Shown here one piece after another: positions 19,715 through 53,913 of a stretch of 64,000 nucleotides of DNA. Position 1 is the stretch's first letter. The number at the start of each line of letters is the position of its first letter. Source of the stretch: Armatimonadota bacterium (GTDB lineage Bacteria > Armatimonadota > SYMT01); assembly GCA_041690135.1 (NCBI GenBank), contig JAWLHY010000010.1, positions 1 through 64,000 on the forward strand. Reading direction: 5' to 3'. The notes below the pieces were generated by a model. The model was given only the letters and a program-made list of their open reading frames with translations, was not told the DNA's origin and searched no databases. The position numbers and the translations under genes were made by a program.

Positions 19715-19905
19715 GGTTCAACTTGATGACCTGCCAACCTACAAACCTTCCAACCTTCCAACGTCTAAACTTGCAACACAGCACCCTGTAAACGCCAAAC
19801 CTTACCCGTCATAAAGCTCCAACCTTCAACCCCCGGCCCCCGCGGGGGGCTTCAACCCTTGGCCCCCGAGGGGGGCTTCAACTTTCAACCTTCAACCTTC
19901 CAACT
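19715..19905. repeat. (TTCAACC)n / (TTCCAACC)n array with two tandem 20-bp hairpin inserts
   Basis: heptamer/octamer repeats; hairpin units at 19831-19850 and 19857-19876 each flanked by TTCAAC. Confidence 0.85.
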
Positions 19906-19931
19906 CTGATCCCACCCGGATCAACCCGCAC

Positions 19932-22900
19932 TCAGTCAATGTACATAAAGGCGGCGGTATTAATCAGTGCATGGCAATAGGTTTCGAGTGCCTTCTGTCC
20001 GGCGGCCGCGTCAGCCCGATTTTCCGGCAAGTTGCGCTTCCACTCCGCCGTGATAAGGGCCAGGTTTTCCACTCCCAGCCGCCGCTCTTCCGCCGTGGGT
20101 GGCCGGGACAGGGCCGTCCAGTAGGCAGCCTCCACCTGCCGAGCCGGGTCCTCTCCCGCTTCGCGGACGATGCGTGCGGCGAAGGCGAGGGCGAGGGCGT
20201 GGATGCGTCCGTTGTTGAGGAGTTGGAGCGCCTGCGGGGAGGCCGTTGCCTCGGAGCGGACGATACAGTTCGGGCTCAGCTGCGGGAGATCGAACGCCTC
20301 CAGCAGGGAAAGGGGCTGCTTGCGCCGCTGGGTCACATAGATACTCCGCCGCCATCCGCGCTCCGTCCCGGCCGCCAGCACCAAACCGTCCGCGCGCGCT
20401 TCCAGCCGATCCGGCCTGCCGAACCGTCGCTCGTCCAACTTCCCCGCCACTAGGAGCAGGCTATCGTAGAGGACCTCCCCCTCCATCCGCCTCAGCCGCA
20501 TACGCGAAAGCAGCCGGTTGTCGGGATCGAGCTTCAACATCCGCTGCGTGACTGTCGATGACTGCCGGTAGGCCCGGGAAGTCATGAGAAGGCGGTGAAG
20601 CCGCTTCAGACTCCATCCCAGGCCTCCGGCGGGGCCAGGGTCGAAGGATGAAGGATCACCCCTACGGGGTACCCGGATGAAGGATGAACCCGAACCGCCG
20701 GAATCAGGAACGGCTGACGGCAGCAGGTTCCCTCCCCCCCCTGCTCCCATCACCCGTGCCCCTTTGCGTCCTGCCAAAACGTAACTCTGACGGTCAACAG
20801 GCATCCCTCCCCCGGTGCCCCCTCCTCCCTTGCGCCCCTGCGTTTCGGTGACCGTACCCGACTCGCAGCCCACATCCCGACTGGTAAACAGGACCGCCAG
20901 AAAATCCAGAAGCTCCGGATGCGTGGGCGCGGCGCCCGTTTTGCCCAAGTTATCCAGGGTCTTGACCAGTCCCTGGCCGAAGTGGTGGTGCCACACACGA
21001 TTGACAATGACGCGGGCGGTCAGGGGATTCTCGGGTCGGACCAGCCACCGCGCGAAGGAGAGCCGGCGGCCCGTTTTCTTCGCACCGGGCCAGGGCGGGC
21101 GGGCCAGGTAGGGGGCGCGGGGATCGGCAAGGACGGCCGGCACCCCGGGCTCCACCGGTATCCCTGGAGTGAGATAGTTGCCCCGGCGGTAGAGGTAGGC
21201 CGGCGAGGGGTCTCCGCGATCCCACAGAGCCCGGATGAGGGGCTGGGGCTCCCGCCTACTTTCCAGTTCTTTGATGCGGGCCTCGGTCTGTTCGGCTAGC
21301 TTGCGGTATTCCGGGTGGCGCTTCCGGAGATCGCCATCGTCCGCCTTCGCGCCCGGTGCATTCCCCGCACCGCGAAGCTCTTTAGCGCGGGCCGCGAGAG
21401 CTTGCCGCAGCCTGCCGATCTCCTCTGTGATCGCCCGCTCTCCTTCATCCCACTTCCGGCGCTCCGCGGTGGAGACGTAAGGAAGATAGCGCAATCGGGA
21501 GAGGTCCGGTCCAGGACGGTCGCCGGCATGCGGGATCAGCCAATCGTGCTCATCCAGCGCCCCACGGAAGATTGCGGTGAGGGCGTAGTAGTCCTTCTGC
21601 GTGATCGGATCGAATTTGTGGTCGTGGCATTTGGCACAGCGCAGCGTGAGGCCCAACACGGACGACGAGAGTACGGTGACCGCATCCGAGATGACGTCGA
21701 GCCGGTCCGGAACGAAGCCGGTGATCGGTGCGAAAGTGCCGTCAGTCGCCATCCGTAGAAATCCGGTAGCCACGAGATTGTCCGCCATCTCCGGTGTGAT
21801 CTCCGGGGCGTTCTCATAGTCTGCCAGCTCATCGCCGGCGATTTGCTCTAGCAGAAAGCGGTCGTACGGCTTATCGCTGTTTAAGGAGCGGATCACGTAA
21901 TCTCGATACCGCCAGGCGTGGGGGCGCAGCGGATCGGCATCCTGGATCCCTTCCGAGTCGGAATAGCCGGCCAGGTCGAGCCAGTGACGCCCCCACCGCT
22001 CCCCATACCGGGGCGAAGCGAGGAGGCGGTCGATGAGTTTCTCGTAGGAGTTTGGGGAGCGATCCGCTAGGAACGCCTTGGCCTCCTCTGGCGAGGGCGG
22101 AAGTCCCGTCAGATCAAAATACGCCCGGCGAAGGAGCGTGAGGCGGTCCGCTTCCGGCGCGAAGGTCAACCCCTGCTTCTCCAAATGTGCCAGGATGAAG
22201 GCATCGATGGGATTGTGCACCAGCCGCGCGTTTTTTGCGGCAGGAACCCTGGGGCGCTTGGGGGGGCGGAAGGCCCAGTGAATAGGTTGGGTGCGTGCTG
22301 CGCGTTGGGTATCGCGTAAGGGAACCACCCCCGCCCCCGAGCCGCCACGATTGCCCTGCGTTCCGGCCCCCTCTCCCCTGGCCCCAGGCACCCTACCCCC
22401 CAGCCCCCTTGCTTCCCAACTGGCGCCGGTGGCGATCCAGCGGGTGAGGAGGGCGACCTCCGCCGGATCCATCGGCTTGACGCTCACTTCGACCACGCGG
22501 CGGGGCGGCGGCATCTCTCCAGCGTGGATTCGTTTGAGAAGAAGACTCTCCTCCGGCTTACCCGGCACGATCGCGGGACCCGACTTTCCGCCGCGGACCA
22601 TGGACTCCCGGGTGCGCAGGTCCAGGCCGCCTTCCTGCTTCCGGTTTCCGTGACATACCGTGCAGCGCAAGTACATCAGCGGTTCGATGTCGTGCCGGGT
22701 TGCCGATGGCGTAGGTGGCGTGGCCACACGGACCCAGGTACGAAGGAGGGCCACTTCGCTCGCAGGCAGGCGAGAAAAACCCTTCGGCGGCATCCGGCCG
22801 GCTACGATCTCACGCAGCAGGGCACTCTCTTCCGGCTTCCCCGCCACCACGACCGGACCGGCATCCCCACCTCTCCAGATTCCGGCTACGGATGTCAGGT

Positions 22901-23111
22901 CGAGCCCTGCCTTACCCGCGGTGGCGTCGTGGCAGGTGCCACATCGCCGCTTCAAGACCGCTAGCGCTTCCTGGTCCGGGCCGTTCTCCTCCGCAGATCC
23001 CCGTCCAGGAAGTGACAGCAACGCCAGAATCCCGGCCACCAGCCAGGCAGAAGCGCCGAGGAGCCAGGAGTGACGTCTCTTTCGTTGGTGGGGCGGTTTG
23101 CGCATGTCCAT
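19932..23111 (-). CDS. DUF1549/DUF1553 protein with two N-terminal planctomycete cytochrome c domains
   Basis: [50 protein letters not shown]; start 23111 or 23105. Confidence 0.92.
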
Positions 23112-23323
23112 GTCTGACACCCCACACCTTTCGCGGTTGCGGGCCAGCGTGAAGCGGCGACATCCTCACTACACGCATCCGGGTACGGAGCGCGGCGGCG
23201 GCCGTGATCCACGGGGTCGTTTGCGACCGGCGGTTCGTCCGCGCGGTGGGGCTTCCCGTTTACTGCCTCGGCTCTCATCCTTTCGCCAGCGGGCGCGAGG
23301 ACTGCGGATGTTGCGTGAGAAGC

Positions 23324-23947
23324 TCAATCGCAATTCGTATGCATCCACCGGGATGCGAAAACCGCACACGCTGCCGCTGCACCCTGGCCCAGGCTGGGGA
23401 GTGCATACCAGACACCCGCGGGTGCCAGCCGTCGCAGTTCCTCCAGCGCGGGCTCGATGTGGACACCCGACTGCTCGCCTCCGAATGCCGTCAGCGCCAC
23501 TGTCGCGAGCAGCGCCCCCAGGAGCAAACTCGTCCAACCGCCCGCAACAACCTCTTCCCCCTCGAATACCTCCACATACCCGCCGAGCCGGCTTGACCGG
23601 AGGTTGGGAAGAGCGAAGAACCACACAAGCGGTACTACGGTCAGTAGGAACCATCCGGCCCCTTGACCGCGACCGCCTCCCGACTCAAGCGTCAACCAGG
23701 CCGCAACGAACCGGAAGAACGCGCCTCCAGTGATGAGCCCTCCCGTTGCCATCAACAGACAACCCCCGGCCAGGCCTGCAATAACCGCCAGAGAGATGTG
23801 CCGCACCTCGCACCAGGTAGCCTGGGCGGCCCGCCGGACGTCTTCCATTGCCTCTTCTCTCAGGAAGGATTCGCATTGGACGCAGAGATCAAGGCCGGTG
23901 GGATTCGGATAGTTGCAGAATGGGCAGCGAAGGTAATCTGAAGGCAT
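23324..23947 (-). CDS. membrane protein with N-terminal zinc ribbon
   Basis: CPFC...CVQC followed by several hydrophobic segments; GGAGG RBS. Confidence 0.7.
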   Translation of the reverse strand: MPSDYLRCPFCNYPNPTGLDLCVQCESFLREEAMEDVRRAAQATWCEVRHISLAVIAGLAGGCLLMATGGLITGGAFFRFVAAWLTLESGGGRGQGAGWFLLTVVPLVWFFALPNLRSSRLGGYVEVFEGEEVVAGGWTSLLLGALLATVALTAFGGEQSGVHIEPALEELRRLAPAGVWYALPSLGQGAAAACAVFASRWMHTNCD

Positions 23948-24183
23948 CGGCGGTCCCTCCCCGACTGCTCAACGCTGTCGCCCCCATCCTGGTTGCGGTC
24001 AGCCTCGCGCCGAATGATCAATTCTGAACAACTCCGCCCGGAGGGGGCTTCGTAGCCCGCGGCGAAGCAGGTAACACCTGCTCAATGGCACTGGGCTGGA
24101 AGCGTGCGAAACTTCGCGGCGCCGTTCGTGACAGGAATCTAGGTCTCCAGTCAACTCCGCCCTGCAGGCAAGGAAAGTAAAGG

Positions 24184-26688
24184 ATGTCCACGAACCACAG
24201 CAGACAACGGACTAAGCATCGGCGAACAGCCGCGCTGGTCGTGCTGGTACCGCTGGGGTTATCTTTCGCTGCGGCGGCCGCCCCGGCGACCCGGGCGGCG
24301 AAGACGGGAGCGAACGGCGACACTACCGGGATCCCCGCGGTAGACTTTAGCCGCCAGATCCTTCCCCTGCTGGCGGACCGCTGTTTCAACTGTCACGGGC
24401 CGGATGCCGCGAAGAGCGGGGCGGGGCTGCGGCTGGACGTGCGGGAAGGCGCCTTGGCCCGGCGTCCGAACGGACGCGCGGCCATCGTCCCCGGCAAGCC
24501 GGAAACGAGCGAGTTTGTCCGTCGAATCCTGGCCGAAAACGGGTCCGTGATGCCGCCGCGCCACTCGAACAAGACCCTGAGCCACTCCGAAAAGGAACTC
24601 CTCAAGCAGTGGATCGCGGAGGGCGCGGAATACCGGCGCCATTGGGCTTTCGTCGCACCGAAGCGCCCCGCCTTACCCCGCGTAAAGTGGAAGGGCTGGG
24701 TCCGTAATCCTATCGATGCCTTTGTGTTGGCACGCCTGGAACGCGAAGGCCTCCAACCGGCGCCGACGGCTGACCGCACCACTCTGATCCGCCGGCTCTC
24801 GCTCGACCTGACGGGCGTGCCGCCCACCCCCGCGGAAGTGGACGCCTTTCTGGCGGACCGTTCCCCCGATGCCTATGAAAAGGTGGTCGATCGCCTCCTC
24901 GCCTCGCCGCGCTATGGGGAGCGGATGGCCTGGGACTGGCTCGACGCGGCGCGCTACGCTGATACCAACGGCTACCAGGGCGACCGCACGCGCACCATGT
25001 GGTTCTGGCGTGACTGGGTGATCGATGCCTTCAACCGGAACATGCCGTTCGACCAGTTCACGGTAGAGCAGCTCGCGGGAGACCTCCTGCCAAATGCCAC
25101 GGTCGCCCAGAAGATCGCTACCGGCTTCAACCGCAACCACATGTTGAATGGCGAAGGCGGGCGTATCCCGGAAGAGTCGCGCGTGGATTACGTGGTGGAC
25201 CGGGTGGACACCACCTCCACAGTGTGGATGGGGCTGACGGTCGGCTGCGCCCGGTGCCACGACCACAAGTATGACCCGATCACGCAGAAGGAATACTACG
25301 GGCTCTTCGCCTACTTCAACAACCTGCCCGAAACGGGCTCCGTAGACCGCAACGGCCAGGCGAACCCGGTGCTCCTCCTCCCTACCCCCGCCCACAGGGC
25401 GCGACTGGAAGAGCTGACGAGAAAAGTGCAGACCCTGGAGGCCGAGCTGAAGGCCGCCGCCGACCCCGCGAAGGCCGAGGCACAGTCGCGGCTGGACGCG
25501 GCCCGAAAGGCGCTGCGCGATACCGAGAACTCGATCCCGGCGGCCATGGTGATGGCCGAGCGCCCGGAGCCCCGCGAGACTTTCGTCCTGCTCAAGGGCG
25601 CCTACGATAAGCCCGGCGAGAAGGTGGCCGCCGGCATTCCCTCGGTCCTTCCACCCCTTCCGGCCGGGAACGCCGTCCCGAACAACCGCTTGGCGCTGGC
25701 CCGGTGGCTGGTTTCTCCGGAGCATCCACTCACCGCGCGGGTGACGGTGAACCGCTTCTGGCAGTCGATTTTCGGGACCGGTCTTGTGAAGACCTCGGAA
25801 GACTTCGGCATCCAGGGTGAGTTGCCGTCCCCCCCGGTGCTCGTGGACTATTGGGCCAGCACCTTCGGCGCCGGGGTCAGGGGTCAGGGGTCGGAGTCCG
25901 GAGACACCAACCCCCAGCCCCTGACCCCTGACCCCGCCGCAGGCCTGGCCTGGAACCTCAAAGCTCTGTTAAAGCTCATCGTCACTTCGAACACCTACAA
26001 GCAGTCGTCGCGCGTGACGCCGGAACTGTTGGCGCGGGACCCGGAGAACCGGCTGTTGGCGCGAGGAGCGCGTTACCGGCTCACTTCCGCTGCGATCCGG
26101 GACCAGGCGCTGGCAGCGAGCGGTCTCCTGGTGGAAAAGGTGGGTGGCCCGCCTGTAAAGCCGTACCAGCCCCCTGGCGTATGGGCGGATGCCACGTTCG
26201 GCAAGATCACCTATCAACAGGATAAGGGCGAGGCGCTCTACCGCCGTAGCCTCTATACCTTCTGGCGGCGGATCGTGGGACCCACGAACCTGTTCGATAC
26301 GGCCGCGCGCCAACAGTGCACGGTCCGGACAGCACGGACCAACACGCCGCTCCACGCCTTGACCCTGTTGAACGACATCACCTACGTGGAGGCGGCGCGC
26401 ACCCTGGCGCAGCGGGTCATGACAGGCGAGGTAGCGCCACAGCGCCGGATTGAAAGCGCGTTCCGGCTGGCGGCGTCCCGGCTACCACGCCCCACGGAGT
26501 CGATGATTCTGCTTCAGCGCCTGGAGCGGCTGCGAGAGCAGTATGCGGCCGATCCAGCTGCGGCGAAGAAGCTTTTGAGCATCGGTGATTCGCCCCGGGA
26601 TGAGAAGCTGGATGCCGTCGAACACGCCGCCTACACCGGGCTGTGCAGCCTCATCCTCAACCTGGACGAAGTCATCACACGGGAGTAG
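24184..26688 (+). CDS. DUF1549/DUF1553 protein with cytochrome c domain
   Basis: CFNCHGPD, HWAF, YGERMAWDWLD, CARCHDHKYDP, RRSLYTFW, TNTPLHAL. Confidence 0.93.
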   Translation: MSTNHSRQRTKHRRTAALVVLVPLGLSFAAAAAPATRAAKTGANGDTTGIPAVDFSRQILPLLADRCFNCHGPDAAKSGAGLRLDVREGALARRPNGRAAIVPGKPETSEFVRRILAENGSVMPPRHSNKTLSHSEKELLKQWIAEGAEYRRHWAFVAPKRPALPRVKWKGWVRNPIDAFVLARLEREGLQPAPTADRTTLIRRLSLDLTGVPPTPAEVDAFLADRSPDAYEKVVDRLLASPRYGERMAWDWLDAARYADTNGYQGDRTRTMWFWRDWVIDAFNRNMPFDQFTVEQLAGDLLPNATVAQKIATGFNRNHMLNGEGGRIPEESRVDYVVDRVDTTSTVWMGLTVGCARCHDHKYDPITQKEYYGLFAYFNNLPETGSVDRNGQANPVLLLPTPAHRARLEELTRKVQTLEAELKAAADPAKAEAQSRLDAARKALRDTENSIPAAMVMAERPEPRETFVLLKGAYDKPGEKVAAGIPSVLPPLPAGNAVPNNRLALARWLVSPEHPLTARVTVNRFWQSIFGTGLVKTSEDFGIQGELPSPPVLVDYWASTFGAGVRGQGSESGDTNPQPLTPDPAAGLAWNLKALLKLIVTSNTYKQSSRVTPELLARDPENRLLARGARYRLTSAAIRDQALAASGLLVEKVGGPPVKPYQPPGVWADATFGKITYQQDKGEALYRRSLYTFWRRIVGPTNLFDTAARQQCTVRTARTNTPLHALTLLNDITYVEAARTLAQRVMTGEVAPQRRIESAFRLAASRLPRPTESMILLQRLERLREQYAADPAAAKKLLSIGDSPRDEKLDAVEHAAYTGLCSLILNLDEVITRE

Positions 26689-27116
26689 GTTGGGTTCACC
26701 GCAAAGACGCTGAGCAGCGCAAAGGGCCGCAAAGTAGGGATGACGAGAAGACACAGATTTCACAGCACGGCACAGCCGCACCCGAACCGGTTCCGGTCTC
26801 CTGAGGTAGCAGAGGGGCTTGTCCCCGTTGGTCACGGTGCGCGCCAAATGCGGACCATACCCGTACCTGAGGACGGCCAGCCTGTTCTGGCAACGGAACC
26901 AGCCTCCTGTATACCGCTACTCCGCTGGATCCCGGAGCCGCTGTCCTGGTCACGATGATCCCGCGGTGACTGGAGTCCCCTAATGATCACTGGAGACTCT
27001 GGCTGCGTAATGCGTGAAGGCTCGGGCGGGATGGGAGCTGGTTTGGCAGTAGCGAAGGGGTCAGAGTTGCGGTGGAATGGGTACTGTGAGCGATCGCTTG
27101 GGATTGGAGTGGTTGG

Positions 27117-28607: not shown

Positions 28608-28624
28608 GAGTTGTAGCTAGTCTC

Positions 28625-30817: not shown

Positions 30818-30978
30818 TGCGAGTGCGAGTTTGCTGGCAGCGTAAATGGCAAACTGCAAGGGTGCAAAGACGACTTGCACCGGCAAGGAGTGAGACCTCT
30901 TCCCTCCGCAGGGATGAACGGTGTACCGTCTCCGGCTGGTTGCTGGATGCGTGCGGGCTCAGTCGTGGCTGCAATCCG

Positions 30979-42469: not shown

Positions 42470-42544
42470 AATCCATCATCCTCGCGGTGATCGGTCTCTG
42501 GACGAGCGTTCGCCTTCCAAGCCGAAAGCCCCTGCGGCAGGTTC

Positions 42545-42740: not shown

Positions 42741-42844
42741 GGCCGCAGGCAAGCGAGAGGGTTCCCTCCCGGCGGCTCGGAACTGTAGAGTGGGTTCAGT
42801 CATTCCGCTGTCCGGAATGCGACTGCGATCCAGTTGGTGGGAGA

Positions 42845-45800: not shown

Positions 45801-45889
45801 GGCAGAAACTCGCGCGGGAAGCGGCTATGAATGTGGCACTCGCGTTGCTTCGCGCGGAGCCCGAGAAGCCACCGGAGGACAGCGAATGA
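42845..45889 (+). CDS. class III adenylate/guanylate cyclase - STAND NTPase - TPR protein
   Basis: FLFTDVEGST, KSMGDGF, GPIVNRVARL; Walker A GPGGTGKT, LILDNCEHL, DGLPLAIELAAAR; C-terminal TPRs. Confidence 0.93.
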   Translation: MVGDLTEGLVFLFTDVEGSTRTWELQPEGMRAALGRHDALLRNAIANHGGRVFKSMGDGFAAVFSDPAAAVSAAFEAQRELFRQDWQGLPVLRVRMALHTGSAEARDGDFYGPIVNRVARLLDSAHGGQILLTGAIFQALGGSLPPGCEARAVGSYRFRDLLLPEEIYQLVHPQLPPVFDRLRALAAFPHNLPTQLSSFIGREKELSALSEWLEGSRVLSLTGPGGTGKTRLALQLGAGVTEQFSDGVWLVELSPLRKADQIYRALGAALGVREDPSRDLLTTLADYLEHRRALLILDNCEHLLEECAHLVERILRHCPYVRILTTTREMLKVAGERVYPVPPLTLPTPDVAPNTEPVLPAHLEQFEAVRLFVDRAVAAHPRFALTADNAGAVVELCRQLDGLPLAIELAAARVRMLSVEQLLGRIQDRFRLLASGRRTAEERQSSLRGMIDWSYQLLTEAERELFHRVAIFRGNFDFAAVEAVCVGQGVPEEDLYLLLESLIDKSLLVAEEVEGAVRYRLLETLQAYALERLQEAHRAEEFAGKHARWYVQVAREAGDHLEGERGDLQEAAAQRLDQEGENLRAAMVWALDRDLEAALHLVRGMGLYWLRRGRWSEAAEAHERVLALRGNTPADLRAKVLRRAGIFARIRGDYRRAHALTAEALALYTDLEDTLGIAVSLYSLGTIALNRGETQEAWSYYEETLSQFRSIGRQAGIADCFQALGLLALAASDLELAGTHFQRCLEIHEELRQTTGIAIALNYLGVVAYLQGAGAEARRRYEESLAILGEGGDRVTTAVVLQNLGREARSRGDLETARSLLERSLAVALEIGSRERAAVICGDLARLDLRVGHTAAARAALEDNLGTLKQIGSRRYVAKFLHDLGEVALAEGDLEKAAPLLRESLEMRREMQHLLNLPESLEAAARFAAASGQEAKAAGLFGAVEACRRHLGIAACSDAQAALARDEERLRGQLGEDRYLTARTAGQKLAREAAMNVALALLRAEPEKPPEDSE

Positions 45890-48681
45890 CCGTCGATCGC
45901 TACTATGTGGCGTCCGGAGCCGACTACGAGGCGGCATGGGCACCGGAAAGTGGGGAGCGGGAGCGCCTCCTTCCACGCCAGGACGGCAGCTTGCCCCCTG
46001 CGGTGTTCGGCAGTGGAGCAGCGCGTTTGCGACTGCACCGGACCTGGGAACCACTTTCCCCTCGCTGGCGGGAGCCGTCCAATGCTTCGCTTGGGATCGG
46101 GATCATCAGTTGCAACCGCCTCGACCGGGTCCGCTGGCTGGTGGAAGCTCTGCAGAGCCACACGCACACCCCATTCCACCTGGTGATCGCGGACGACGGC
46201 AGCGTGGACGGCACGGCCGCCTGGGCGCGGGAGAGCGGCATCCCGGTGGTGACCGGCCGCAACCGCGGGGTAGCCTGGAACAAGAACCGGGCTCTCTACT
46301 GGCTGATGCACCGCACTTCCTGCGAAAAGCTGCTGCTGATCGAGGACGACATCCATCCGGTGCGCGATGGGTGGGAGCGCGGTTGGCTGGAGGCCCTCGA
46401 CTGCTTCGGTCACCTCAATTACTGTCCCGACAGCGGGCGCCCCGAAGGAGGCCAACAGGTCGCCGTCTACGACCCCTATCCGGCCTTCGACTGGGTCAAT
46501 GGCCTGATGATGGCCTTCACCCGACCGGCGGTGGAGCAAGTGGGTTACCTCGACACCCGGTTTCAGGGTTACGGAGCCGGGCATGTGGAGTACACGGAGC
46601 GGTTCAGGCGGGCAGGCCTGCACCCCCCACGCGGCTTCGTGACCCTGCGCGACGGCTCGTTGAGTGAGCACCCACGACAGCCCCTACAGGAAAGTCGCGT
46701 CGCGGATATCGCTCGAAACCGGGCTCTGCGTCGTGAGTTGGCTCAAGATCCAGTCTGGCGACCGCCGGCTCGGGGCTCGCGGGAGGCGGCAATCCTGGTG
46801 CATGAGCAAGAGCGTGCCCGGTGGTCACAGAAACTACCGGTTGGCGAAGGGGCCGAGATCGTTTCCGTGTTGTGTGCGAGCCGCACGGAGGCGCTCGCCC
46901 GGCGCATGGCCGCCTCGTTCAGTAACGATCCGAACATCGAATTCCTTTGGGCCTGGAACGGCGAAGGGATGCCGGACCTGCCAGGGCGCGTGCTCGACTA
47001 TCCCGGGCGTCCCTTCAACTACTGCGAGGCCTATAACTGGGTAGCCCGCCACGCACGGGGCAAAGTGCTGCTGATGGTCAACGACGATGTCGAGTTGACC
47101 TGCACCGGCCTTCCCCGGTTCCTCCTGGACCTTTATCGCTCCCGGCCGGACCTCGGCGTTGCTTACGGCGGACAGGCCGGCACGTGGGAAGTCCATGATG
47201 CCCCGGAGGCGCCTCACTGGCAGGGTTGTTGTTGGGCGATCTCGCGAAGCGCGTTCGCAGCCATGGGAGGGCTCGAGGAGTCCCTCCACGGATACGGTGC
47301 CGACGAGTTCGTTACTACCATCCGCATGCTGCGCCTCGGGTATGCCGGGGCGAGAATAAACGGCTGGACTTACCGCCATGAGGCTCACAAATCTTACGGT
47401 CAGGTGGAAGGCCTGCGCTACAACCGCCGAGAAGTTCCCGCCGCCCTGGGGTGGGGAGTCGCCACGGAACTGAGCGATCTGGATCTTGGTTGGAACGGTC
47501 CCTGGCTACATCAGCAGATCGCCACCGCCGAGGGTCGGGGGGACCTCGCGGACGCCTGGTTGCCCAATGTGTTCAAGTCAGCCGCCTCCGAACCACTCTC
47601 CCTGGCGGACACTACCCTTTCGGTAGCAGGTGACACCGCGCACTACAGTGCAGATGCGGTCACTGCCGGGAATACGGCCGGGCACCCACTGCCATCCATT
47701 GGGTACACCCTGGGGATTGCTCCCGCAAACGGACCGCACGTGGCGTCCCCCGCCATCGCCAAGGGGATGGGGGAACGATCTGAACAGTTTTTGACTGCTC
47801 GGCACGAACCTGTTTCTCCCTCCACACCCCTTGGATCATCACGACTGGGTGCGGCTTCCGGTCCATCGCCGAAGCCGTTCGATCGGATCCCGTTGTCTCC
47901 CTGGTTCGAGCCGGCTCGGGCGCCGCTTGGAATCGGGATCATCAGTTGCAACCGCCTCGCGCAAGTAAGGCGCCTGGTGGAGGCCTTACAGAACCACACG
48001 TTCACCCCATTCCACCTGGTGATCGCGGACGACGGCAGCGTGGACGGCACGGCCGCCTGGGCGCGGGAGAGCGGCATCCCGGTGATGACCGGCCGCAACC
48101 GCGGGGTAGCCTGGAACAAGAACCGGGCTCTCTACTGGCTGATGCACCGCACTTCCTGCGAAAAGCTGCTGCTGATCGAGGACGACATCCATCCGGTGCG
48201 CGATGGGTGGGAGCGCGGTTGGCTGGAGGCCCTCGAGCGCTTCGGCCATCTCTGCTACAGCCCCGAGGGGGCTCACGTTCCCGAGCAACTGGTGGCGCTC
48301 CACTTCGGTTACGTCGCCCTCGACTGGGTGGGCGGCGCCCTGATGGCAATGACCCGGAAGACCGTGGAGAGGGTGGGTTACCTCGACACCCGCTTCCAAG
48401 GATACGGCGACGAGCACATCGAATACAGCGAGCGATGCCAGCGCGCGGGATACTACTCCCACCCGGGGTTTGTCACCCTGCGGGACGGCTCCCTCTGCGA
48501 CCATCCCCCGATCGAGGGCTCCCCGGAGCGTCTCCGGGATCTCCTGCGCAATCGAAAACTCCGTGCTCGGCTAGTCGAAGAGCCGGTCTACCGTCCCCCT
48601 GCCCGGGACGAACCGGAGCGACAGGTACTGGAAACGGAGATCGAAGCGGCCATCGCCCTCCGTGAGTTGGCTTGGGTTTAG
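45886..48681 (+). CDS. glycosyltransferase with three GT2-type domains
   Basis: IADDGSVDGT, NRGVAWNKN and IEDD twice; middle domain with MVNDDV and GGLEE..HGYGADE; ATGA overlap with the upstream gene. Confidence 0.88.
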   Translation: MTVDRYYVASGADYEAAWAPESGERERLLPRQDGSLPPAVFGSGAARLRLHRTWEPLSPRWREPSNASLGIGIISCNRLDRVRWLVEALQSHTHTPFHLVIADDGSVDGTAAWARESGIPVVTGRNRGVAWNKNRALYWLMHRTSCEKLLLIEDDIHPVRDGWERGWLEALDCFGHLNYCPDSGRPEGGQQVAVYDPYPAFDWVNGLMMAFTRPAVEQVGYLDTRFQGYGAGHVEYTERFRRAGLHPPRGFVTLRDGSLSEHPRQPLQESRVADIARNRALRRELAQDPVWRPPARGSREAAILVHEQERARWSQKLPVGEGAEIVSVLCASRTEALARRMAASFSNDPNIEFLWAWNGEGMPDLPGRVLDYPGRPFNYCEAYNWVARHARGKVLLMVNDDVELTCTGLPRFLLDLYRSRPDLGVAYGGQAGTWEVHDAPEAPHWQGCCWAISRSAFAAMGGLEESLHGYGADEFVTTIRMLRLGYAGARINGWTYRHEAHKSYGQVEGLRYNRREVPAALGWGVATELSDLDLGWNGPWLHQQIATAEGRGDLADAWLPNVFKSAASEPLSLADTTLSVAGDTAHYSADAVTAGNTAGHPLPSIGYTLGIAPANGPHVASPAIAKGMGERSEQFLTARHEPVSPSTPLGSSRLGAASGPSPKPFDRIPLSPWFEPARAPLGIGIISCNRLAQVRRLVEALQNHTFTPFHLVIADDGSVDGTAAWARESGIPVMTGRNRGVAWNKNRALYWLMHRTSCEKLLLIEDDIHPVRDGWERGWLEALERFGHLCYSPEGAHVPEQLVALHFGYVALDWVGGALMAMTRKTVERVGYLDTRFQGYGDEHIEYSERCQRAGYYSHPGFVTLRDGSLCDHPPIEGSPERLRDLLRNRKLRARLVEEPVYRPPARDEPERQVLETEIEAAIALRELAWV

Positions 48682-48935
48682 GCCCGCCTGGCGGAATGGG
48701 CGCGGATGAGCTGCCGCCTGATCCCGAATGGAGTGGACCGGCCCGGTCCGGCCCGAACGACGACACCGCAAGGTGCCGCCGTTCGGGTTGCACGGGGATG
48801 GAACCCTGCATCGTCCCCGCCCCATGCTTTCACGTTCCACGGTTCACACTTAAGCATCATGCCTGCGATGCACGAGAACCCGGTTATTGTCTTTGCGCCC
48901 TTCTTCAACGACGTACCGATACTCGCACAAGAAAG

Positions 48936-49925
48936 CTAGCTGGTGAAGCGTACCGGGGTGCCGGTGCTAACCATTCCGGCCAGTTCCTGGGCATCCCAGT
49001 TGGTCAGTCGCACGCAGCCATGCGAGGCCTGTTTGCTGATTCGTGACGGCGTGGGAGTGCCGTGGATTCCATACCCCTCTTTGGATAGGTCGATCCAAAC
49101 GATGCCCACCGGATTGTTAGGTCCCGGCGGCACCTTGAGCACTTCCCCTTCTTCCAGGTCTGCATACTCCAGATCCCCGCTGTAGGTGAACACCGGCCGC
49201 TCCGCAATTCCATTGACCTCCAGGTCGCCGGAAGGCGAGGGGAACTGGTTACTCCCCACCGTCGCCGGATAAAAGGCGATGAGCTGCCCATCGGTCCCGT
49301 AGGCTTTCACAGTCTGGTTGTTGCGATCCACCATTACGGTCTTGATCTCACCGGCCGGCTGGCGGTCGAGCACATTGGCTACGGTGATCTGGGTTCCCGC
49401 GCTACCGAAGTCCACACCTGGGTTCAGGTCCTCCAACAGGTCCTGGTCCATGTGGAACTTCTCCGCCAGGAGTTCGGCGGGAGACGTGTAGGGCATCCGC
49501 TCCATCTCCGCCATTTCGGTCATCTGATTGGGAATCGACTCCGCGAATGGGCCGTTCGCGTCATCTTCGGAGATGGTGTAGGTCGTCAACACGGGCGCAT
49601 TGCCGCCTTTGCGTAGCAGCGCCTCCCACGTCTGCCGGTCGAGGTTCCCTGTCCGGGGCAAGCCGTTTACGTATTGGAAAGCCCGCAATGCCTTGCGGGT
49701 ATTACCGCCGTAGTAGCCGTCAATGACCCCTGGTGAGATGTAGGCGCGGTCCAACAGAATCTGCGCCTTGGTCATTATTCCCTGTGGCCCTCCGCCCTGC
49801 CGGGCCTGTGGGCTGAACTCCGCCTGCCGGACTTCCTCCGGATTGATCTGAGCCCATGCGGGCGTTGCGCCACCCACGAGCGCCACCGCACCGATGGCCC
49901 CCAGGATCTGCCTCCACTGTTTCAT
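48936..49925 (-). CDS. L,D-transpeptidase with peptidoglycan-binding domain
   Basis: IDGYYGGNTRKALRAFQ, PPGPNNPVG, YGIHGT, SHGCVRLTNWD; ATG 49925 overlaps the upstream stop. Confidence 0.93.
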   Translation of the reverse strand: MKQWRQILGAIGAVALVGGATPAWAQINPEEVRQAEFSPQARQGGGPQGIMTKAQILLDRAYISPGVIDGYYGGNTRKALRAFQYVNGLPRTGNLDRQTWEALLRKGGNAPVLTTYTISEDDANGPFAESIPNQMTEMAEMERMPYTSPAELLAEKFHMDQDLLEDLNPGVDFGSAGTQITVANVLDRQPAGEIKTVMVDRNNQTVKAYGTDGQLIAFYPATVGSNQFPSPSGDLEVNGIAERPVFTYSGDLEYADLEEGEVLKVPPGPNNPVGIVWIDLSKEGYGIHGTPTPSRISKQASHGCVRLTNWDAQELAGMVSTGTPVRFTS

Positions 49926-51193
49926 TGTCCCTGTCTCCCTTCCGTGTTCCTTTTCTCGTTTTGCTCTTCTCTTTCCGTTGCGTCTCCCAACTCCTCCGGG
50001 GGCGACATCTTCGCGGCCGGCCCCTCTATGGCAAGGTCGGGGTTGGACACTTCGGCGGCCGGCAGGTAGAAGTGCATGATGTCCCCGCTGCCGTTTGCCA
50101 TGTCCGTGCCGCCCCACATGATCCCCACTTCGCCCAGGGCACGAACCAGCTCCTGGGACAGGTTCATAAAGCCAAACTCCGGAGCCCGGTACTGCGCGTC
50201 GCCCACGAAGGGCCGTTCCGCTTCGCCCAGAGGTTGCGGGTCGGGATAGGTGAACCCGGCAACCGGCGGCCCGGCGCGCCCCGCCAGCGTTACGTAGTCC
50301 TGCAGCATCTGGCGTTGGAGCGCATCCGCCGTGATCTCCTCCCCTCCGGGTAGGATCTCATTCCAGAAGGCAGGCGGCGCCGGGTCCGTAATGGCTTGCA
50401 GGTGGCGATCGATCTCCGGGCGATCCTGCATCAGGCGGAAGTAGGCAATCATCGCGCGGCTCTCCTCTTCCAACTGTTGGAAGAGGCGCATCCGCCGCTC
50501 CTGGCTCGGCGGCCAGGTGGTGATTTCTTCGGGAATTACCGAATCGCGGCCCAGCATCAGGCGAGCGATGCGATGATAGACCTCGCCCAACTGGCGGTTG
50601 AGTTCGTCCTCCCCCTGCTCGTGCATGATGTAGGGGTTGCGGAAGTAGTTGATGTCGATCGCCAGACCACGCGAGTGCGCACGGCTGCCGGGCCGATAGC
50701 CGGAGATGGTCCGTACCCCCCAACGTCCCTGGTCGCTGGCTCCCGATGACTCCACCTGTGCGAGAAGTCGTTCTGCTTCCAGGAGCCGATCCCGCATCTC
50801 CGGGTGCAAGCCGTAGACGGTGGTGCCAAAGACTTCTACATCCACGAGCGCCTCCGGGATATCGGTACGCCTCGGCGCCGCGGGCAATTCGCCGGGCGGC
50901 GGGGGCGTCGGTAACGGAGGCGGTGCGATCTGGCCGGCCCCCGCCGTTCCGTTGGGTCCCTCGCCGGTGGAATCCGTGGGGTCTTCGGGGCACGTTTCAT
51001 GCATCTCGGAATTCGTCGCGTAGGCCTCTCCCTGCGGCGTCGCGCGGACGACCTCCTCCGGCAGAGGCAGCGCCTCACATCCCCCCACCAGTACCGCCGC
51101 GCTGACGGTGAGCACGGTCCATACGCCAGTCGCCGTCCGGCGCACCGAGCCGGGAAGGTGGTGTCTCCCGACATTTGGTGTTCCTTGTCTCAT
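49922..51193 (-). CDS. probable lipoprotein, M15-type (D-Ala-D-Ala) metallopeptidase
   Basis: lipobox-like LVGGC, SGYR..SRAHSRGLAIDIN, WGG...DIMHF; GGAGG RBS. Confidence 0.8.
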   Translation of the reverse strand: MRQGTPNVGRHHLPGSVRRTATGVWTVLTVSAAVLVGGCEALPLPEEVVRATPQGEAYATNSEMHETCPEDPTDSTGEGPNGTAGAGQIAPPPLPTPPPPGELPAAPRRTDIPEALVDVEVFGTTVYGLHPEMRDRLLEAERLLAQVESSGASDQGRWGVRTISGYRPGSRAHSRGLAIDINYFRNPYIMHEQGEDELNRQLGEVYHRIARLMLGRDSVIPEEITTWPPSQERRMRLFQQLEEESRAMIAYFRLMQDRPEIDRHLQAITDPAPPAFWNEILPGGEEITADALQRQMLQDYVTLAGRAGPPVAGFTYPDPQPLGEAERPFVGDAQYRAPEFGFMNLSQELVRALGEVGIMWGGTDMANGSGDIMHFYLPAAEVSNPDLAIEGPAAKMSPPEELGDATEREEQNEKRNTEGRQGQ

Positions 51194-51364
51194 TCCTGTC
51201 CTCCGGTACGCCCGTTTTACCTGAATCGGAGAAGGCCCAACCTTTCCACGACGACAAAGCAGGAGACACAACTGCAGCCCGAGCGGAGACCGATTGAGGG
51301 ACGAACGACTTGGGTAAGCCCCAGTTAAGGCGGAAACTGTAGCCCGCCGGAAAGGAACGAAAAG

Positions 51365-51520
51365 ATGTGGGGAGTGCTTTGGACGATTATCGCGGTGCTG
51401 GTGGTCCTCTGGATCGTTGGGTTGGTCCTGGACCTGTTTAGCCCCATCCTGCACCTGCTGCTGGTTGTAGCCGCGGTGCTGTTTGTAATCAACATGTTCA
51501 TGGGGCGGACGCGGGTCTAG
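51365..51520 (+). CDS. 51-aa lmo0937/DUF5670-like small membrane protein (below ORF-track cutoff)
   Basis: MWGVLWTIIAVLVVLWIVGLVLDLFSPILHLLLVVAAVLFVINMFMGRTRV*; AAAGGA RBS. Confidence 0.85.
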   Translation: MWGVLWTIIAVLVVLWIVGLVLDLFSPILHLLLVVAAVLFVINMFMGRTRV

Positions 51521-51535
51521 CTTTCAGACCGCATG

Positions 51536-52127
51536 GGGTGCGGTTTGGCGGGATCTGGGTTGGCAGGTTGAAGCCCCCCTCGGGGGCCAAGGGGTGAAAG
51601 TTGCTCCGGATCCGGCGCTTGGTACGGTTCGATAAGACCGGGATCCGAGTCGGAAACTTGAGATCCGTCAATCCCCAGCAGGCCTCTCCGGGCTTGGCGT
51701 AATCAGGGCCGGCAGTTCCGTCGGGCTGAAGCGTTTCGCCGTGAGACCTTCAATCCTGACCCCGTAACAGCCGAACCGAATAAGCCGCTGCCGCTGGGCT
51801 CCCAACCTGCCACCTGCCAACCCTCAGCCCTGATTAAATCCCGCGAAGCCGCACCCCATTCTGGCCGCAGGGGTCCCCAACCCCTGGCCCCCAAGGGGGC
51901 ATCAACTTTCAACCTTCAACGCTTGGCCCCCGAGGAGGGCTTCAACCTTCAACCTTCAACCCTTGGCCCCCGAGGGGGGCTTCAACCTTCGACCTTCGAC
52001 CTTCAACTCACAACTCAGATCTCATCGCAGCAAAACCGTACCAGCCTCAGCGACCCGAATTCCTAACCTTCAACTTTCCAACCTTCCAACCTTCAACCTG
52101 CAACCCAGATCCCGCCAAACCGCACCC
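51536..52127. mobile_element. MITE-like non-coding element bounded by 38/37-bp inverted repeats
   Basis: 51536-51573 is the reverse complement of 52091-52127 apart from one deleted base; interior holds heptamer arrays and four hairpin inserts; no TSD seen. Confidence 0.55.
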
Positions 52128-52131
52128 ACTC

Positions 52132-52160
52132 TTGACTCCATGCATAGACGCTCGTAAACT
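52132..52160 (+). promoter_or_regulatory. pyrG promoter TTGACT-N17-TAAACT
   Basis: near-consensus boxes with 17 bp spacer, 58 bp before the GTG. Confidence 0.7.
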
Positions 52161-52218
52161 GGCGGGTTGGAATGGCCCACTCCGGGCCTTTTAAGCAACT
52201 GGACCTGGTGAAAAGCAC

Positions 52219-53859
52219 GTGACTGACAATACCCGCTTCATTTTCGTCTCCGGAGGGGTCGTGTCCGGGCTCGGGAAGGGCATTACCGCCGCTTCTCTCG
52301 GACTGCTTCTCAAGGCGCGTGGATTCAGCGTCTCGCCGATCAAGTGCGACATGTACGTCAACCTGGACGCGGGGACGATGAACCCCACCATCCACGGCGA
52401 GGTCTTCGTGACCGACGATGGCCTGGAAGCGGACCAGGACCTGGGCCACTACGAGCGCTACCTCAACCAGGACACGAGTCGTGCCAACTACGTGACCACC
52501 GGCCAGATCTACTACTCCATCATCCAGAAGGAGCGAGAGCTGGCTTACGAGGGCAAGTGCGTCGAGGTGGTGCCCCACGTTCCGGAAGAGATCATCTCCC
52601 GTATCACGCAGGCGGCCAACGGCGCGGAGTTCGTGATCGCGGAGTTCGGCGGCACGGTCGGCGAGTACCAGAGCGAAGTCTTCCTGGAAGCCACTCGTAT
52701 CATGGCGAAGCGGCTCCCGGGCCGGACCGCCCACATCCACGTCTCTTACTTCCCCTACCTCGATAGCCTGGGCGAGTTGAAATCCAAGCCGACCCAGCTC
52801 TCCATCCGCAAGTTGAACGAGTGCGGTATCCTCCCCGATTTCGTGGTCGCGCGCTCGGCACGGGCCGTGGATACTCCCCGGTTTACGACCCTTTGCCAGA
52901 ACTCGAACCTGGAGCCGGACCAGATCATCTTCAGCCCGGACATGCAGTCGGTCTACCAGGTGCCGATGAAACTGGAGGAGCAGGAGTTCGCCCAGAAGCT
53001 GCTTCGCCGGCTGGGCGTGAACGTGATCCCCCGTCCGCGCATCCAGGAGTGGGAAGACCGCGTCGCCAGGTTCCTGGCGCCCAACAAGCAGGTGCTCAAG
53101 GTCGGCATCGTGGCTAAATACCACGCGGTCGGCGACTACTCTCTCTCCGATGCCTATGTCAGCGTGGTGGAAGCGCTCCATCACGTGGAAGCGATCGCCG
53201 ACGTGAAAGTCGAGATCGACTGGGTGGACGCCGAGGACCTGCGCACGGTGAAGGATGCCGCCGCCCGCCTGGCGAGTTGCGATGGGGTCATCATCCCGCA
53301 GGGCTGGGGCTCGCGCGGCGCCGAGGGCAAGATCGCGGCCATCCAGTACCTGCGCGAGAACAACGTGCCTTACTTCGGTCTCTGCTACGGCATGCAGATG
53401 GCGGTGATCGAGTTCGGGCGCAACGTGCTGGGTCTGAAGAATGCCAGCAGCGAGGAAGTGAACCCCTCCACCCCGCACCCGGTGGTGCACGTGATGCCGG
53501 AGCAGGCGGAGATCATCCGCCAGAAGCGATACGGCGGCAGCATCCGGGTGGGCGCCTACCCCTGCCGGACCTCCGAGGGCTCCCGGCTCCGCGAGCTTTA
53601 CGGCTCCGAGGTGATCAGCGAGCGGCACCGGCACCGGTACGAGTTCAACAACGAGTACCGCGCGCAATTCGAAGCGGCGGGGCTGGTCTTCTCCGGGCAG
53701 TCGCCGGACGGGAAGTTGGTCGAGGCCGTGGAATTAACGGATCACCCGTTCTTCGTAGGCGTCCAGTACCACCCCGAGTACAAGAGCCGCTTCGAAGATG
53801 CGCATCCGCTCTTTGTCGGCTTCATCGAGGCCTGCCGCAACCGCGCCGACAACCGCTAA
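52219..53859 (+). CDS. pyrG: CTP synthase
   Basis: GGVVSGLGKG, HGEVFVT, DLGHYER, KPTQ, GLCYGMQ, ERHRHRYE, VQYHPE. Confidence 0.97.
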   Translation: MTDNTRFIFVSGGVVSGLGKGITAASLGLLLKARGFSVSPIKCDMYVNLDAGTMNPTIHGEVFVTDDGLEADQDLGHYERYLNQDTSRANYVTTGQIYYSIIQKERELAYEGKCVEVVPHVPEEIISRITQAANGAEFVIAEFGGTVGEYQSEVFLEATRIMAKRLPGRTAHIHVSYFPYLDSLGELKSKPTQLSIRKLNECGILPDFVVARSARAVDTPRFTTLCQNSNLEPDQIIFSPDMQSVYQVPMKLEEQEFAQKLLRRLGVNVIPRPRIQEWEDRVARFLAPNKQVLKVGIVAKYHAVGDYSLSDAYVSVVEALHHVEAIADVKVEIDWVDAEDLRTVKDAAARLASCDGVIIPQGWGSRGAEGKIAAIQYLRENNVPYFGLCYGMQMAVIEFGRNVLGLKNASSEEVNPSTPHPVVHVMPEQAEIIRQKRYGGSIRVGAYPCRTSEGSRLRELYGSEVISERHRHRYEFNNEYRAQFEAAGLVFSGQSPDGKLVEAVELTDHPFFVGVQYHPEYKSRFEDAHPLFVGFIEACRNRADNR

Positions 53860-53913
53860 CCAACTGGTTGAAGGTTCCAGCCCCCCCTCGGGGGCCGGGA
53901 GTTGAAAGTGGAA

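Follow-up and report, generated by a model that had tools for sequence, protein, structure and literature searches.

Short GC-rich hairpins recur within tandem arrays of CAAC-type words in the window, that is the whole 64-kb stretch of DNA analysed here, and they raise the question whether they are inserts that were placed into the arrays or simply parts of an expanding repeat. An earlier note on this DNA had listed seven copies of a 20-bp hairpin in a constant orientation relative to the arrays and had proposed that they were inserted by a trans-acting enzyme with a duplication of 6–7 bp of the target TTCAAC. All seven copies could be located (Table 1). Three are identical to the 20-mer CCTTGGCCCCCGAGGGGGGC, two are variants of it with 2–3 mismatches, and two are looser copies. 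The five matches to the 20-mer compare with 0.03 expected, and none of 100 shuffled sequences reached five. Each of the seven copies lies in or beside a run of heptamers or octamers and all have a single orientation relative to it; the array at about 9710–9752, described as lacking the canonical insert, is indeed a degenerate minus-strand run. Tandem Repeats Finder reports a period of 26 (2.3 copies) at 19824–19882 and a period of 40 (3.1 copies) at 51878–52001. The short minus-strand module at about 51537–51610 faces the plus-strand modules at a distance of about 270 bp. Downstream (3′) of the outer motif closing the latter there is a promoter-like site at 52132–52160.

Table 1. Positions of the hairpin copies, unit runs and conserved motifs in the window
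Positions	Strand	Feature	Match
9708..9752	-	degenerate CAAC-type array without canonical hairpin
19729..19762	+	degenerate run of CAAC-type octamers lacking the hairpin, oriented as the composite run 19824..19905
19824..19905	+	composite run: two blocks of hairpin + TTCAAC (period 26), then four CAAC-type units
19831..19850	+	hairpin copy, variant CCCCGG...GCG loop	3 mismatches
19857..19876	+	exact copy of the window 20-mer hairpin, tail subtype CCTTG	sequence match and fold
about 19906-19932		degenerate outer-motif-like sequence, 3′ of the composite run 19824..19905
51537..51558	-	outer motif CCAGATCCCG-CCAAACCGCACC belonging to the minus-strand module
51573..51592	-	hairpin copy within the short minus-strand module	exact 20-mer
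51870-51881	+	inner motif GGGGTCCCCAAC, tandem 40-bp blocks begin directly after
51878..52001	+	three tandem 40-bp blocks, each of one hairpin and about three heptamers
51882..51900	+	hairpin copy, variant CCCTGGCCCCCAAGGGGGC	looser copy
51921..51940	+	hairpin copy, variant GCTTGG...GAGGAGGGC	2 mismatches
51961..51980	+	hairpin copy	exact 20-mer
52060..52104	+	following tandem module, a run of CAAC-type units lacking the hairpin
52105..52126	+	outer motif CCAGATCCCG-CCAAACCGCACC, closes the plus-strand modules
53881..53899	-	degenerate hairpin copy CCCGGCCCCCGAGGGGGGG between GGTTGAAGG and GTTGAAAG units, convergent spacer after pyrG	looser copy

In the whole genome 72 matches within three errors of the hairpin consensus were found, 16 of them exact, and this consensus starts with CCCTGG and not with CCTTGG. 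The discrete unit is CYYTRG-C5-GMG-G6, situated between CAA(C/A) and C, and if it is taken out, the sequence returns to the heptamer period or to the motif GCCAAACCGYACC. The unit which behaves as an insert is 19 nt long (52 of 87 candidates retrieved with a regular expression have this insert length), and the earlier description as a discrete unit holds whereas its length of 20 bp does not. As single-stranded DNA the unit folds into a stem of six G:C base pairs with a loop of three nucleotides and a free energy of −6.9 kcal/mol, only a z of −1.35 relative to shuffles of the same GC-rich letters. In stem columns 6–11 and 15–18 no more than 4 of 70 copies deviate per column; columns 19–20 show 12–14 departures, which we read as a length shift of one G. 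Variation is found instead in 14–22 of the 70 copies at tail positions 2, 3, and 5 and at loop position 13. The conserved 5′ tail of the hairpin, CYYTR(G), is asymmetric.

The hairpins are embedded in a mosaic module of about 60–200 bp which consists of an inner motif GGGGTYCCCAAC, a run of the units CTTCAAC, CTTCCAAC or CTGCCAAC, and an outer motif CAGATCCC-N5-8-GCCAAACCGYACC. Arrays fill gaps between genes of this soil-type bacterium, and the modules are single, in tandem or arranged as inverted pairs. The outer motif, searched as CCAAACCG[TC]A[CG]C, has 43 occurrences, versus four in a reversed-sequence control, and is preceded by units in 16 of the 43 cases. The hairpin takes three positions in this architecture, namely between array units, where the array borders the outer motif, and within the conserved outer motif itself (GCCAAA^CCGYACC). 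In six copies at four loci the 13-nt motif GCCAAAC|CGYACC is cleanly split by exactly 19 nt, and about four further copies are found at CAAC|CCAGATCC. Of the 87 candidates 64 have CAAC and 7 have CAAA 5′ of the hairpin, and in 57 of the 87 a regular or degenerate unit follows 3′. The position of the hairpin varies within otherwise paralogous modules, and in the tandem module pair C15:47798-47931 one member is filled and the other is empty.

These contexts allow the proposed target duplication to be judged. TTCAAC is present on both sides in 18 of 60 copies, but an insert inside a tandem array is always flanked by units, and thus the flanking TTCAAC is the neighbouring array unit and not a target duplication. 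Ten copies are informative in that no array unit follows on their 3′ side; none of them has a duplication, and the duplication of 6–7 bp is not supported. Assignment to the MITE class was considered and rejected, as there is a single hairpin and no duplication in these ten copies. The hairpin is a discrete, orientation-specific unit at the fixed junction CAA(C/A)^C without target duplication. Comparison of the paralogous modules, and of interrupted with intact motifs, suggests that it was inserted there. The six interrupted outer motifs may go back to one ancestral event and not to four, since they all have a CTTTAG or CTCTAG tail and in most cases the loop is GCG or GCC.

The genome-wide count and tabulation of flanks that the earlier note had recommended yielded about 68 copies associated with arrays, distributed over 46 loci. 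In a substitution-only search with at most three mismatches 62 of 63 matches point the same way relative to the CAAC-type words, so that the constant orientation extends beyond the window; the sole exception (C16:165665) looks like a chance match. Array and hairpin together give up to 63 BLAST hits and their flanks match only themselves. TTCAACCTTCAACC is present 88 times with about none expected. Of the 136 array loci 104 are without hairpin. Outside this genome matches are rare: (CCTTCAA)3 within two mismatches has 97 matches here and none in six genomes of the same family, the hairpin element was not found in the 40 relatives searched, six of which belong to the same family, and among 185,579 species represented by one genome each there are only three isolated matches, in unrelated MAGs. 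The element is confined to a single word family and a single lineage.

Within a locus the hairpin copies multiply together with one or more units in blocks of 25–27 and 40 bp. Copies differ by 3.8 edits within a locus and by 6.1 edits between loci (32 versus 2246 pairs), and none of 2000 permutations gave a value as low. Moreover, copies of one locus share private variants, as at C4:211707 (five copies) and C6:300281 (three copies) as well as on C13, C23, and C12. The earlier note had set ordinary REP/BIME expansion against its insertion reading, and this objection is borne out in part, as copies always lie in a longer mosaic repeat and blocks expand within loci.

How then did the hairpin reach its sites? 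The explanation which we prefer, and to which we give an even chance, is that the 20-mer represents a REP-like 19-nt GC hairpin module of a lineage-specific mosaic intergenic repeat that was copied in and then multiplied locally. A strand- and junction-specific copy-in step would bring the hairpin to its sites, and blocks of hairpin and unit would afterwards multiply by slippage or unequal exchange. Several points count against this explanation. The CCTTG tail subtype clusters regionally, with five of eight copies in C10:19.8-67.7 kb, as if it had spread across tens of kilobases, which is beyond the reach of slippage. Homology-driven copying between arrays leaves the entry of the hairpin into the outer motif unexplained, and we know of no mechanism by which a 19-nt unit could be copied from locus to locus when CAA(C/A) and C are its only context. 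The strong conservation of the stem might also reflect selection for a host function.

A trans-acting HUH/Y1 single-strand transposase, similar to those of IS200/IS605 or to RAYTs, could insert the hairpin 3′ of CAA(C/A) without duplication. Such an enzyme would account for the fixed junction, the single orientation, the lack of a duplication and the regional clustering of one tail subtype, and the asymmetric 5′ tail can be compared with the GTAG of REPs as presented in the excerpts of Ton-Hoang et al. (2012, PMC3333891). There are nine Y1_Tnp matches in the genome, and the only Y1 protein tested (L158) passes the NCBIfam IS200/IS605 model with 77 bits versus a cut-off of 55 and is below the cut-off for REP_Tyr_transpos. 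However, all nine matches are more than 1 kb away from any array or hairpin, contrary to the idea of a HUH/RAYT gene flanked by the hairpin, and of the three strongest Y1 genes the two examined, L158 and L160, carry their own inverted flanks which are unrelated to it. The single 19-nt hairpin also contrasts with the left and right hairpins of IS200/IS605 and the REP/iREP pairs of BIMEs, as far as these are covered in the excerpts (PMC3333891). In addition, block duplication explains the multiplicity within loci better. We consider the transposase unlikely. Orientation relative to the GC skew gave counts of 24/20 and 22/16 (Fisher p 0.83) and hence no visible bias, but the skew of this draft genome of 25 contigs is weak.

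It appears distinctly unlikely that the hairpin is ancestral to the module and was never inserted, so that all variation would stem from slippage, deletion, and recombination of arrays. This origin would agree with the block-wise amplification, with the restriction of the copies to the repeat family and with the frequent location directly 3′ of the inner motif (window 51870-51900, C23:16619, C2:163980, C1:108792, and one arm of the PF05635 cassette described below). On the contrary, the intact outer motifs outnumber the split ones by 43 to six, the position within the modules varies and most array loci are free of hairpins. An exact loss of a palindrome with a flanking repeat of only 1 nt would hardly have taken place 43 times.

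The preferred explanation also draws on a link of the module to the family PF05635, named '23S rRNA intervening-sequence protein'. In this genome inverted arrays of tandem words bracket seven of the eight PF05635 genes above cut-off. One of the seven, now frameshifted, lies between arms of the module with the TTCAACC-type word and a hairpin variant (L152; GGTTGAA runs 1077-1110 and 1366-1380, TTCAACC runs 1975-2037); the arms of the six others are built from other words. Two metagenome contigs (L100 and L119) also have a PF05635-like open reading frame beside TTCAACC arrays. In a further reading the hairpin would be a mobile unit of its own, the smallest yet seen, written into CAA(C/A)^C without duplication by a hairpin-guided single-strand DNA machinery that also builds and maintains the heptamer arms of PF05635 cassettes. 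The enzyme might be an unrecognised nuclease or a nucleic-acid-binding PF05635 protein with a host partner. We regard this further reading as doubtful.

Very improbably, the hairpins are selected functional elements (RNA stabilisers, protein-binding sites or attenuators in transcribed spacers), as selection for a host function could explain the nearly invariant stem next to a variable tail and loop, and as in excerpts of the respective papers E. coli REP/BIME are reported to bind IHF at some linkers (PMC3333891) and Xanthomonas heptamer repeats to be mostly transcribed (PMC4692102), but no consistent orientation relative to the flanking genes is seen (antisense to both in 41 cases, sense to both in 31), no Rfam family matched, no terminator-like site with a GC hairpin and a T run was found in 51400–52300 and 19600–19960, and the element was not found in the 40 relatives searched. 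With crude gene calls based on GC3 and longest open reading frames, a further 19 cases are located between convergent and 17 between divergent genes, and the intergenic classes resemble the background. Most likely the hairpin repeat is selfish or neutral DNA that the host tolerates, rather than a gene-control element.

Overall, the hairpin resembles the REP/BIME repeats of E. coli more than a new kind of transposon. E. coli REPs are 30–40 nt long, and the tetranucleotide GTAG is conserved 5′ of the foot of their hairpin; in the excerpts of Ton-Hoang et al. (2012, PMC3333891) enterobacterial REP/BIME are, as here, short GC-rich imperfect palindromes with a conserved asymmetric 5′ tail, present in tens of intergenic copies, joined by fixed linker motifs to mosaics, and of locus-dependent tandem number. 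In contrast to the repeats portrayed there, our hairpin has only 19–20 nt, its tail is CYYTR(G) and not GTAG, its copies are arranged head-to-tail in one orientation without REP/iREP pairs, the linkers are heptamer microsatellites, and the hairpin was not found beside any of the Y1 genes.

Heptamer arrays have been known in bacteria for decades, yet a mechanism is lacking; the STRR of heterocystous cyanobacteria reportedly go back to Mazel et al. in 1990. According to the excerpts of Rehm et al. (2015, PMC4692102), which state that there was no detailed literature on such arrays as of 2015, GGGAATC in Xanthomonas and GGGGA(C/T)T in Nostoc are heptameric simple-sequence repeats. Like these, the arrays described here are lineage-specific 7-nt tandem arrays with 2 to about 14 units, scattered over non-coding DNA and sometimes in convergent inverted pairs (PMC4692102, same excerpts). 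Unlike the Xanthomonas and Nostoc heptamers the word is free of G, so that no quadruplex is possible, and the run is flanked by conserved inner and outer motifs. It also contains a separate hairpin unit, and the excerpts describe no such insert for Xanthomonas or Nostoc (PMC4692102).

With IS200/IS605 and its miniature derivatives the hairpin shares the location beside a specific short word without target duplication, the dependence on a DNA hairpin and the single orientation, and it differs in having one hairpin instead of a left and right pair and no TnpA nearby. To our knowledge 19 nt are far below any described substrate of this type. If the copy-in step is only recombination, we are dealing with an ordinary, though well-resolved, repeat family. 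Still, a 13-nt motif that is intact 43 times and split by 19 nt six times is an unusually clean read-out of what, from the comparison of motifs, appears to be a tiny hairpin entering DNA at a defined junction without target duplication, and CAA(C/A)^C together with the hairpin is a concrete candidate substrate for biochemistry. In this mini-palindrome the junction of the insert and the absent duplication can be read from the interrupted conserved motif itself, and one organism links REP-like hairpins, heptamer microsatellites, and the enigmatic PF05635 cassettes.

The hairpin, a REP-like GC unit of 19 nt, is one module of a mosaic intergenic repeat. With all loci listed in one orientation, this repeat is composed of an inner motif, GGGGTYCCCAAC, a run of units of the type CTTCAAC, CTTCCAAC or CTGCCAAC in which hairpins are present or absent, and an outer motif, CAGATCCC-N5-8-GCCAAACCGYACC. 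The outer motif is frequently also found ~12 nt ahead of a following inner motif, and therefore the modules stand in tandem series (see the table). A stricter regular expression for the right end recovered only 15 sites and the 12-mer core of the outer motif, CCAAACCG[TC]A[CG]C, was used instead; this core is present 43 times in the genome as compared to 4 times in a reversed-sequence control and is preceded by at least three units in 16 of the 43 cases. Within the window a minus-strand module (51537-51610) opposes three plus-strand modules (~51797-52126) across a gap of ~190-270 bp, depending on the plus-strand module counted. Modules of quite different words, such as GTAATGCG-type or C/T-rich runs, also end in the outer motif CCAAACCGTACC (C3:987747-987813, C10:328322, C11:146928 and C18:20422); several repeat families may share it as a terminus or target.

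Hairpin copies of the window, genes next to them, tandem module series and PF05635 genes bracketed by inverted word arrays (C, contigs of the source genome; other positions refer to the window)
Feature	Position	Strand	Remark
Hairpin, exact 20-mer CCTTGGCCCCCGAGGGGGGC	19857	+	
Hairpin, exact 20-mer	51573	-	
Hairpin, exact 20-mer	51961	+	
Hairpin, 2-3 mismatches to the 20-mer	19831	+	
Hairpin, 2-3 mismatches to the 20-mer	51921	+	
Hairpin, looser copy	51882-51900	+	
Hairpin, looser copy	53881-53899	-	
DUF1501 gene	18114-19631	-	flanks first hairpin locus
PSCyt/PSD1 gene	19932-23120	-	flanks first hairpin locus
Weakly annotated gene	49922-51454	-	flanks second hairpin locus
pyrG	52219-53859	+	flanks second hairpin locus; converges on third with FG-GAP gene
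FG-GAP gene	54401-55585	-	converges with pyrG on third hairpin locus
Tandem module series	51797-52126		window
Tandem module series	C15:80171-80345		
Tandem module series	C15:47798-47931		
Tandem module series	C3:422109		
Tandem module series	C1:108792		
PF05635 locus L148	C2:458489		with arms
PF05635 locus L149	C12:139242		with arms
PF05635 locus L150	C3:996621		with arms
PF05635 locus L151	C6:103422		with arms
PF05635 locus L152	C1:613508		with arms
PF05635 locus L153	C13:91057		with arms
PF05635 locus L154	C6:194935		with arms

The hairpin copies of the window, their array context and the degenerate array without hairpin at 9708-9752 had been correctly described in the earlier note. All window copies are contained in or adjoin runs of CTTCAAC-type words, and Tandem Repeats Finder reports a period of 26 (x2.3) at 19824-19882 and of 40 (x3.1) at 51878-52001. 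The five matches to the 20-mer compare to 0.03 in dinucleotide-preserving shuffles, and five were reached in 0 of 100 shuffles. As single-stranded DNA the unit folds into a hairpin of six G:C pairs and a 3-nt loop (-6.9 kcal/mol), with a z of only -1.35 relative to equally GC-rich shuffles. All genes neighbouring these loci are ordinary. A perfect 32-nt palindrome (GTTCAGGGGTCTCGCA / TGCGAGACCCCTGAAC) at 53915-53946 adjoins the degenerate hairpin copy; it belongs to another repeat family, because the flank that contains it has matches of 69-125 nt with 79-89% identity on C9 and C2. Inverted heptamer runs, (GGGGTCA)x2.9 and (CCCCTGA)x2.6, at 25873-25935 lie within an ORF call (24184-26688, plus strand) and may be a translated heptamer hairpin, the ORF call being crude.

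The window corresponds to C10:1-64000. In the source genome (9.1 Mb, 65% GC, a draft of 25 contigs) the genome-wide count suggested earlier yielded 63 matches to the window 20-mer at up to 3 substitutions, of which four are exact and three of these lie in the window. The genomic consensus, CCCTGGCCCCCGAGGGGGGC, is found 16 times exactly and 72 times when up to 3 errors are allowed. Four of these 72 are chance matches in coding DNA lacking array context; the remaining 68 array-associated copies are distributed over 46 loci, 15 of which have two to five copies. The tail also has a second common subtype, CTTTAG.... All but one of the 63 substitution-only matches are found in or beside CAAC-type units or the outer motif, and the orientation relative to the words is identical for all 62. 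When array loci, defined as at least three CAAC spaced 5-9 nt, were pooled with hairpins we obtained 154 loci, with arrays in 136, hairpin matches in 50 and both in 32. By BLAST of the window spacers, the array and hairpin are repeated (up to 63 matches) and all else is unique.

It had been proposed that the hairpin is a discrete micro-insert which duplicates a 6-7 bp target, TTCAAC. With the flanks anchored in one way, the two sides of the hairpin share an identical 6-mer in only 19 of 60 copies, and TTCAAC is found on each side of 18. Such flanks are no proof of duplication, because any insert in a tandem array is flanked by units. Informative are the hairpins whose 3' side is no array unit. 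Six hairpins in four loci reside inside the outer motif (C1:108867 and 108987; C1:1151927; C2:337824; C6:343006 and 343114), which then reads GCCAAAC-[19 nt]-CGYACC as compared to GCCAAACCGYACC in 43 other copies, and about four further hairpins are located at an array edge, CAAC-[19 nt]-CCAGATCC or a variant. A duplicated word was found beside none of these ten copies, and thus the claimed target duplication is rejected. A census by regular expression gave 87 hairpin candidates with an insert length of 19 nt in 52, and the 5' flank CAAC in 64 and CAAA in 7. On the 3' side 49 candidates are followed by a regular and 8 by a degenerate unit, 6 run into the second half of the outer motif, and the other 24, many of them chance matches, are followed by other sequences. 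The junctions together with the census therefore define the unit as CYYTRG-C5-GMG-G6 between CAA(C/A) and C; once these 19 nt are deleted the heptamer period or the motif is restored. Within modules the hairpin is positioned directly after the inner motif, in the middle of the run, at the outer edge or within the outer motif, and at C15:47798-47931 one of two clearly paralogous tandem modules has the hairpin and the other lacks it. Hence, of the proposed micro-insert the 19-nt unit at a fixed junction stands and the target duplication does not; this junction-level evidence for an insert without duplication is new here.

How the copies multiplied can be read from their variants. The mean edit distance is 3.8 within a locus (32 pairs) and 6.1 between loci (2246 pairs), and none of 2000 label permutations was as low as 3.8. 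At C4:211707 five copies share one G fewer, at C6:300281 three copies share a GCG loop and a TTCCAAC linker, and private variants are also common to copy pairs on C13, C23 and C12. Each 40-bp block of the window comprises a single hairpin with some three heptamers. This fits slippage or unequal exchange of such composite blocks better than a repeated insertion at every third unit. Loci less than 100 kb apart show no greater overall likeness (6.8 versus 6.1); the CCTTG tail subtype has 5 of its 8 copies, and 4 of its 7 loci, within C10:19.8-67.7 kb (~0.001, a post-hoc hypergeometric estimate). Of 70 copies, no more than 4 vary at any one of the stem columns 6-11 and 15-18, and the 12-14 departures at columns 19-20 are interpreted as a length shift by one G; the variable sites, with 14-22 copies each, are positions 2, 3 and 5 of the tail and the middle base of the loop. 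With such a near-invariant stem, either hairpin-competent copies alone propagate or the stem is under selection.

Empty alleles, which had been predicted to retain a single TTCAAC, were not seen in the contigs of the public sequencing runs X1, X2 and X4: record 23 of X4 spans 51536-51715 with the hairpin present, the match of X2 record 8 ends at 51595 and is not readable as filled or empty, and no X1 contig bridging 51878-52004 was found. X1 contains a relative ~80-91% identical over pyrG and its upstream gene (window 49500-54500) and many array/hairpin contigs, which suggest that this uncultured relative carries many copies. The depth of X1 is concentrated on the stretch with array and hairpin, and thus uncultured kin seem to have the repeat family as well. 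The sequencing runs found to match share only a small part, and none of those listed is an RNA run. The hairpin 26-mer has no match in 40 relatives nor in JGI metagenome contigs, and hairpin and arrays are both absent from 6 same-family genomes. Three exact matches among 185,579 species genomes are taken as chance. By BLAST with both flanks of 101 loci no real paralogous filled/empty pair was found; these flanks match other small repeat families.

A transposase or reverse transcriptase gene flanked by the hairpin, as expected for an element placed by a trans-acting enzyme, was not found. All nine Y1_Tnp (PF01797) matches are more than 1 kb away from any array or hairpin, and by coordinates neither of the two RVT_1 matches is near a PF05635 gene or the listed loci. 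Two of the three strongest Y1 genes have their own long inverted flanks unrelated to the hairpin, and one Y1 protein exceeds the cut-off of the NCBIfam model for IS200/IS605 and stays below that of the REP-associated model. The genome can thus supply HUH enzymes in trans, and nothing ties them to the hairpin. The IS200/IS605-like Y1 genes at L158 (C11:209.7 kb) and L160 (C2:54.6 kb), with inverted repeats of 47-57 nt of their own, may be separate REP-like systems.

Arrays of short tandem words are also found around genes of the PF05635 family ('23S rRNA intervening-sequence protein'). The genome has 10 matches, 8 of them above cut-off, and 7 of these 8 genes stand between inverted arrays in which a word of 6-8 nt is repeated in tandem. 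The word differs from gene to gene: GGCAGAA, GTAAGA, GGTGTTCG, GATAAAG, ATTGCAA, GACAATT and GGTTGAA/TTCAACC. The remaining gene, L155, is without inverted word arrays. At L152, the locus with GGTTGAA/TTCAACC arms, the right arm carries the inner motif of the family and a hairpin variant, a further variant lies on the left side, one end resembles the outer motif, and a frameshift near L152:1700 interrupts the PF05635 gene (L152:1480-1940). An 8-mer array (CCCGAACA x4.2) at window 14000-14033, just upstream of a gene start, has the arm word of the PF05635 gene at C3:996621. The exact 20-mer of the TTCAACC word is present in at least 124 metagenome contigs (L024-L147) of 30-70% GC, some with inverted pairs, and TTCAACC arrays are not unique to the source lineage. 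Among the matches listed none has the hairpin, and in two a PF05635-like ORF adjoins the arrays (L100:2000-2446 and L119:1-460), as judged by an HMM built from the proteins of the source genome.

Relative to the neighbouring genes 41 of the 154 loci are antisense to both, 31 sense to both, 19 lie between convergent and 17 between divergent genes, 45 are inside ORF calls, which are crude, and a contig ends at the one remaining locus. Orientation is therefore mixed, and the loci are distributed over the intergenic classes about as the background is by length. No terminator-like site was found in 51400-52300 or 19600-19960, and Rfam gave no match at gathering or E<=1 thresholds. Our reading is that the repeat family is probably tolerated selfish or neutral DNA. 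A promoter-like TTGACT-17-TAAACT follows directly after the outer motif at 52132-52160, with the pyrG start ~60 nt downstream; by eye, TTGACA-type hexamers follow the outer motif at a few other loci, and this is not general.

In titles and abstracts of the open-access literature we found none on hairpin inserts inside heptamer arrays, and in open-access full text no paper with PF05635 or 'intervening sequence protein'. The arrays can be grouped with the heptameric repeats of the Xanthomonas/Nostoc/STRR type, as far as these are described in PMC4692102. With REP/BIME elements, as portrayed in PMC3333891, the hairpin shares the small palindrome, the asymmetric tail, the linker mosaics and the variable tandem number; unlike the elements portrayed there it has no GTAG, no REP/iREP pairing and no cognate RAYT. 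Thus, among the kinds described in these sources REP/BIME is the closest, and we regard the hairpin unit as a variant thereof.
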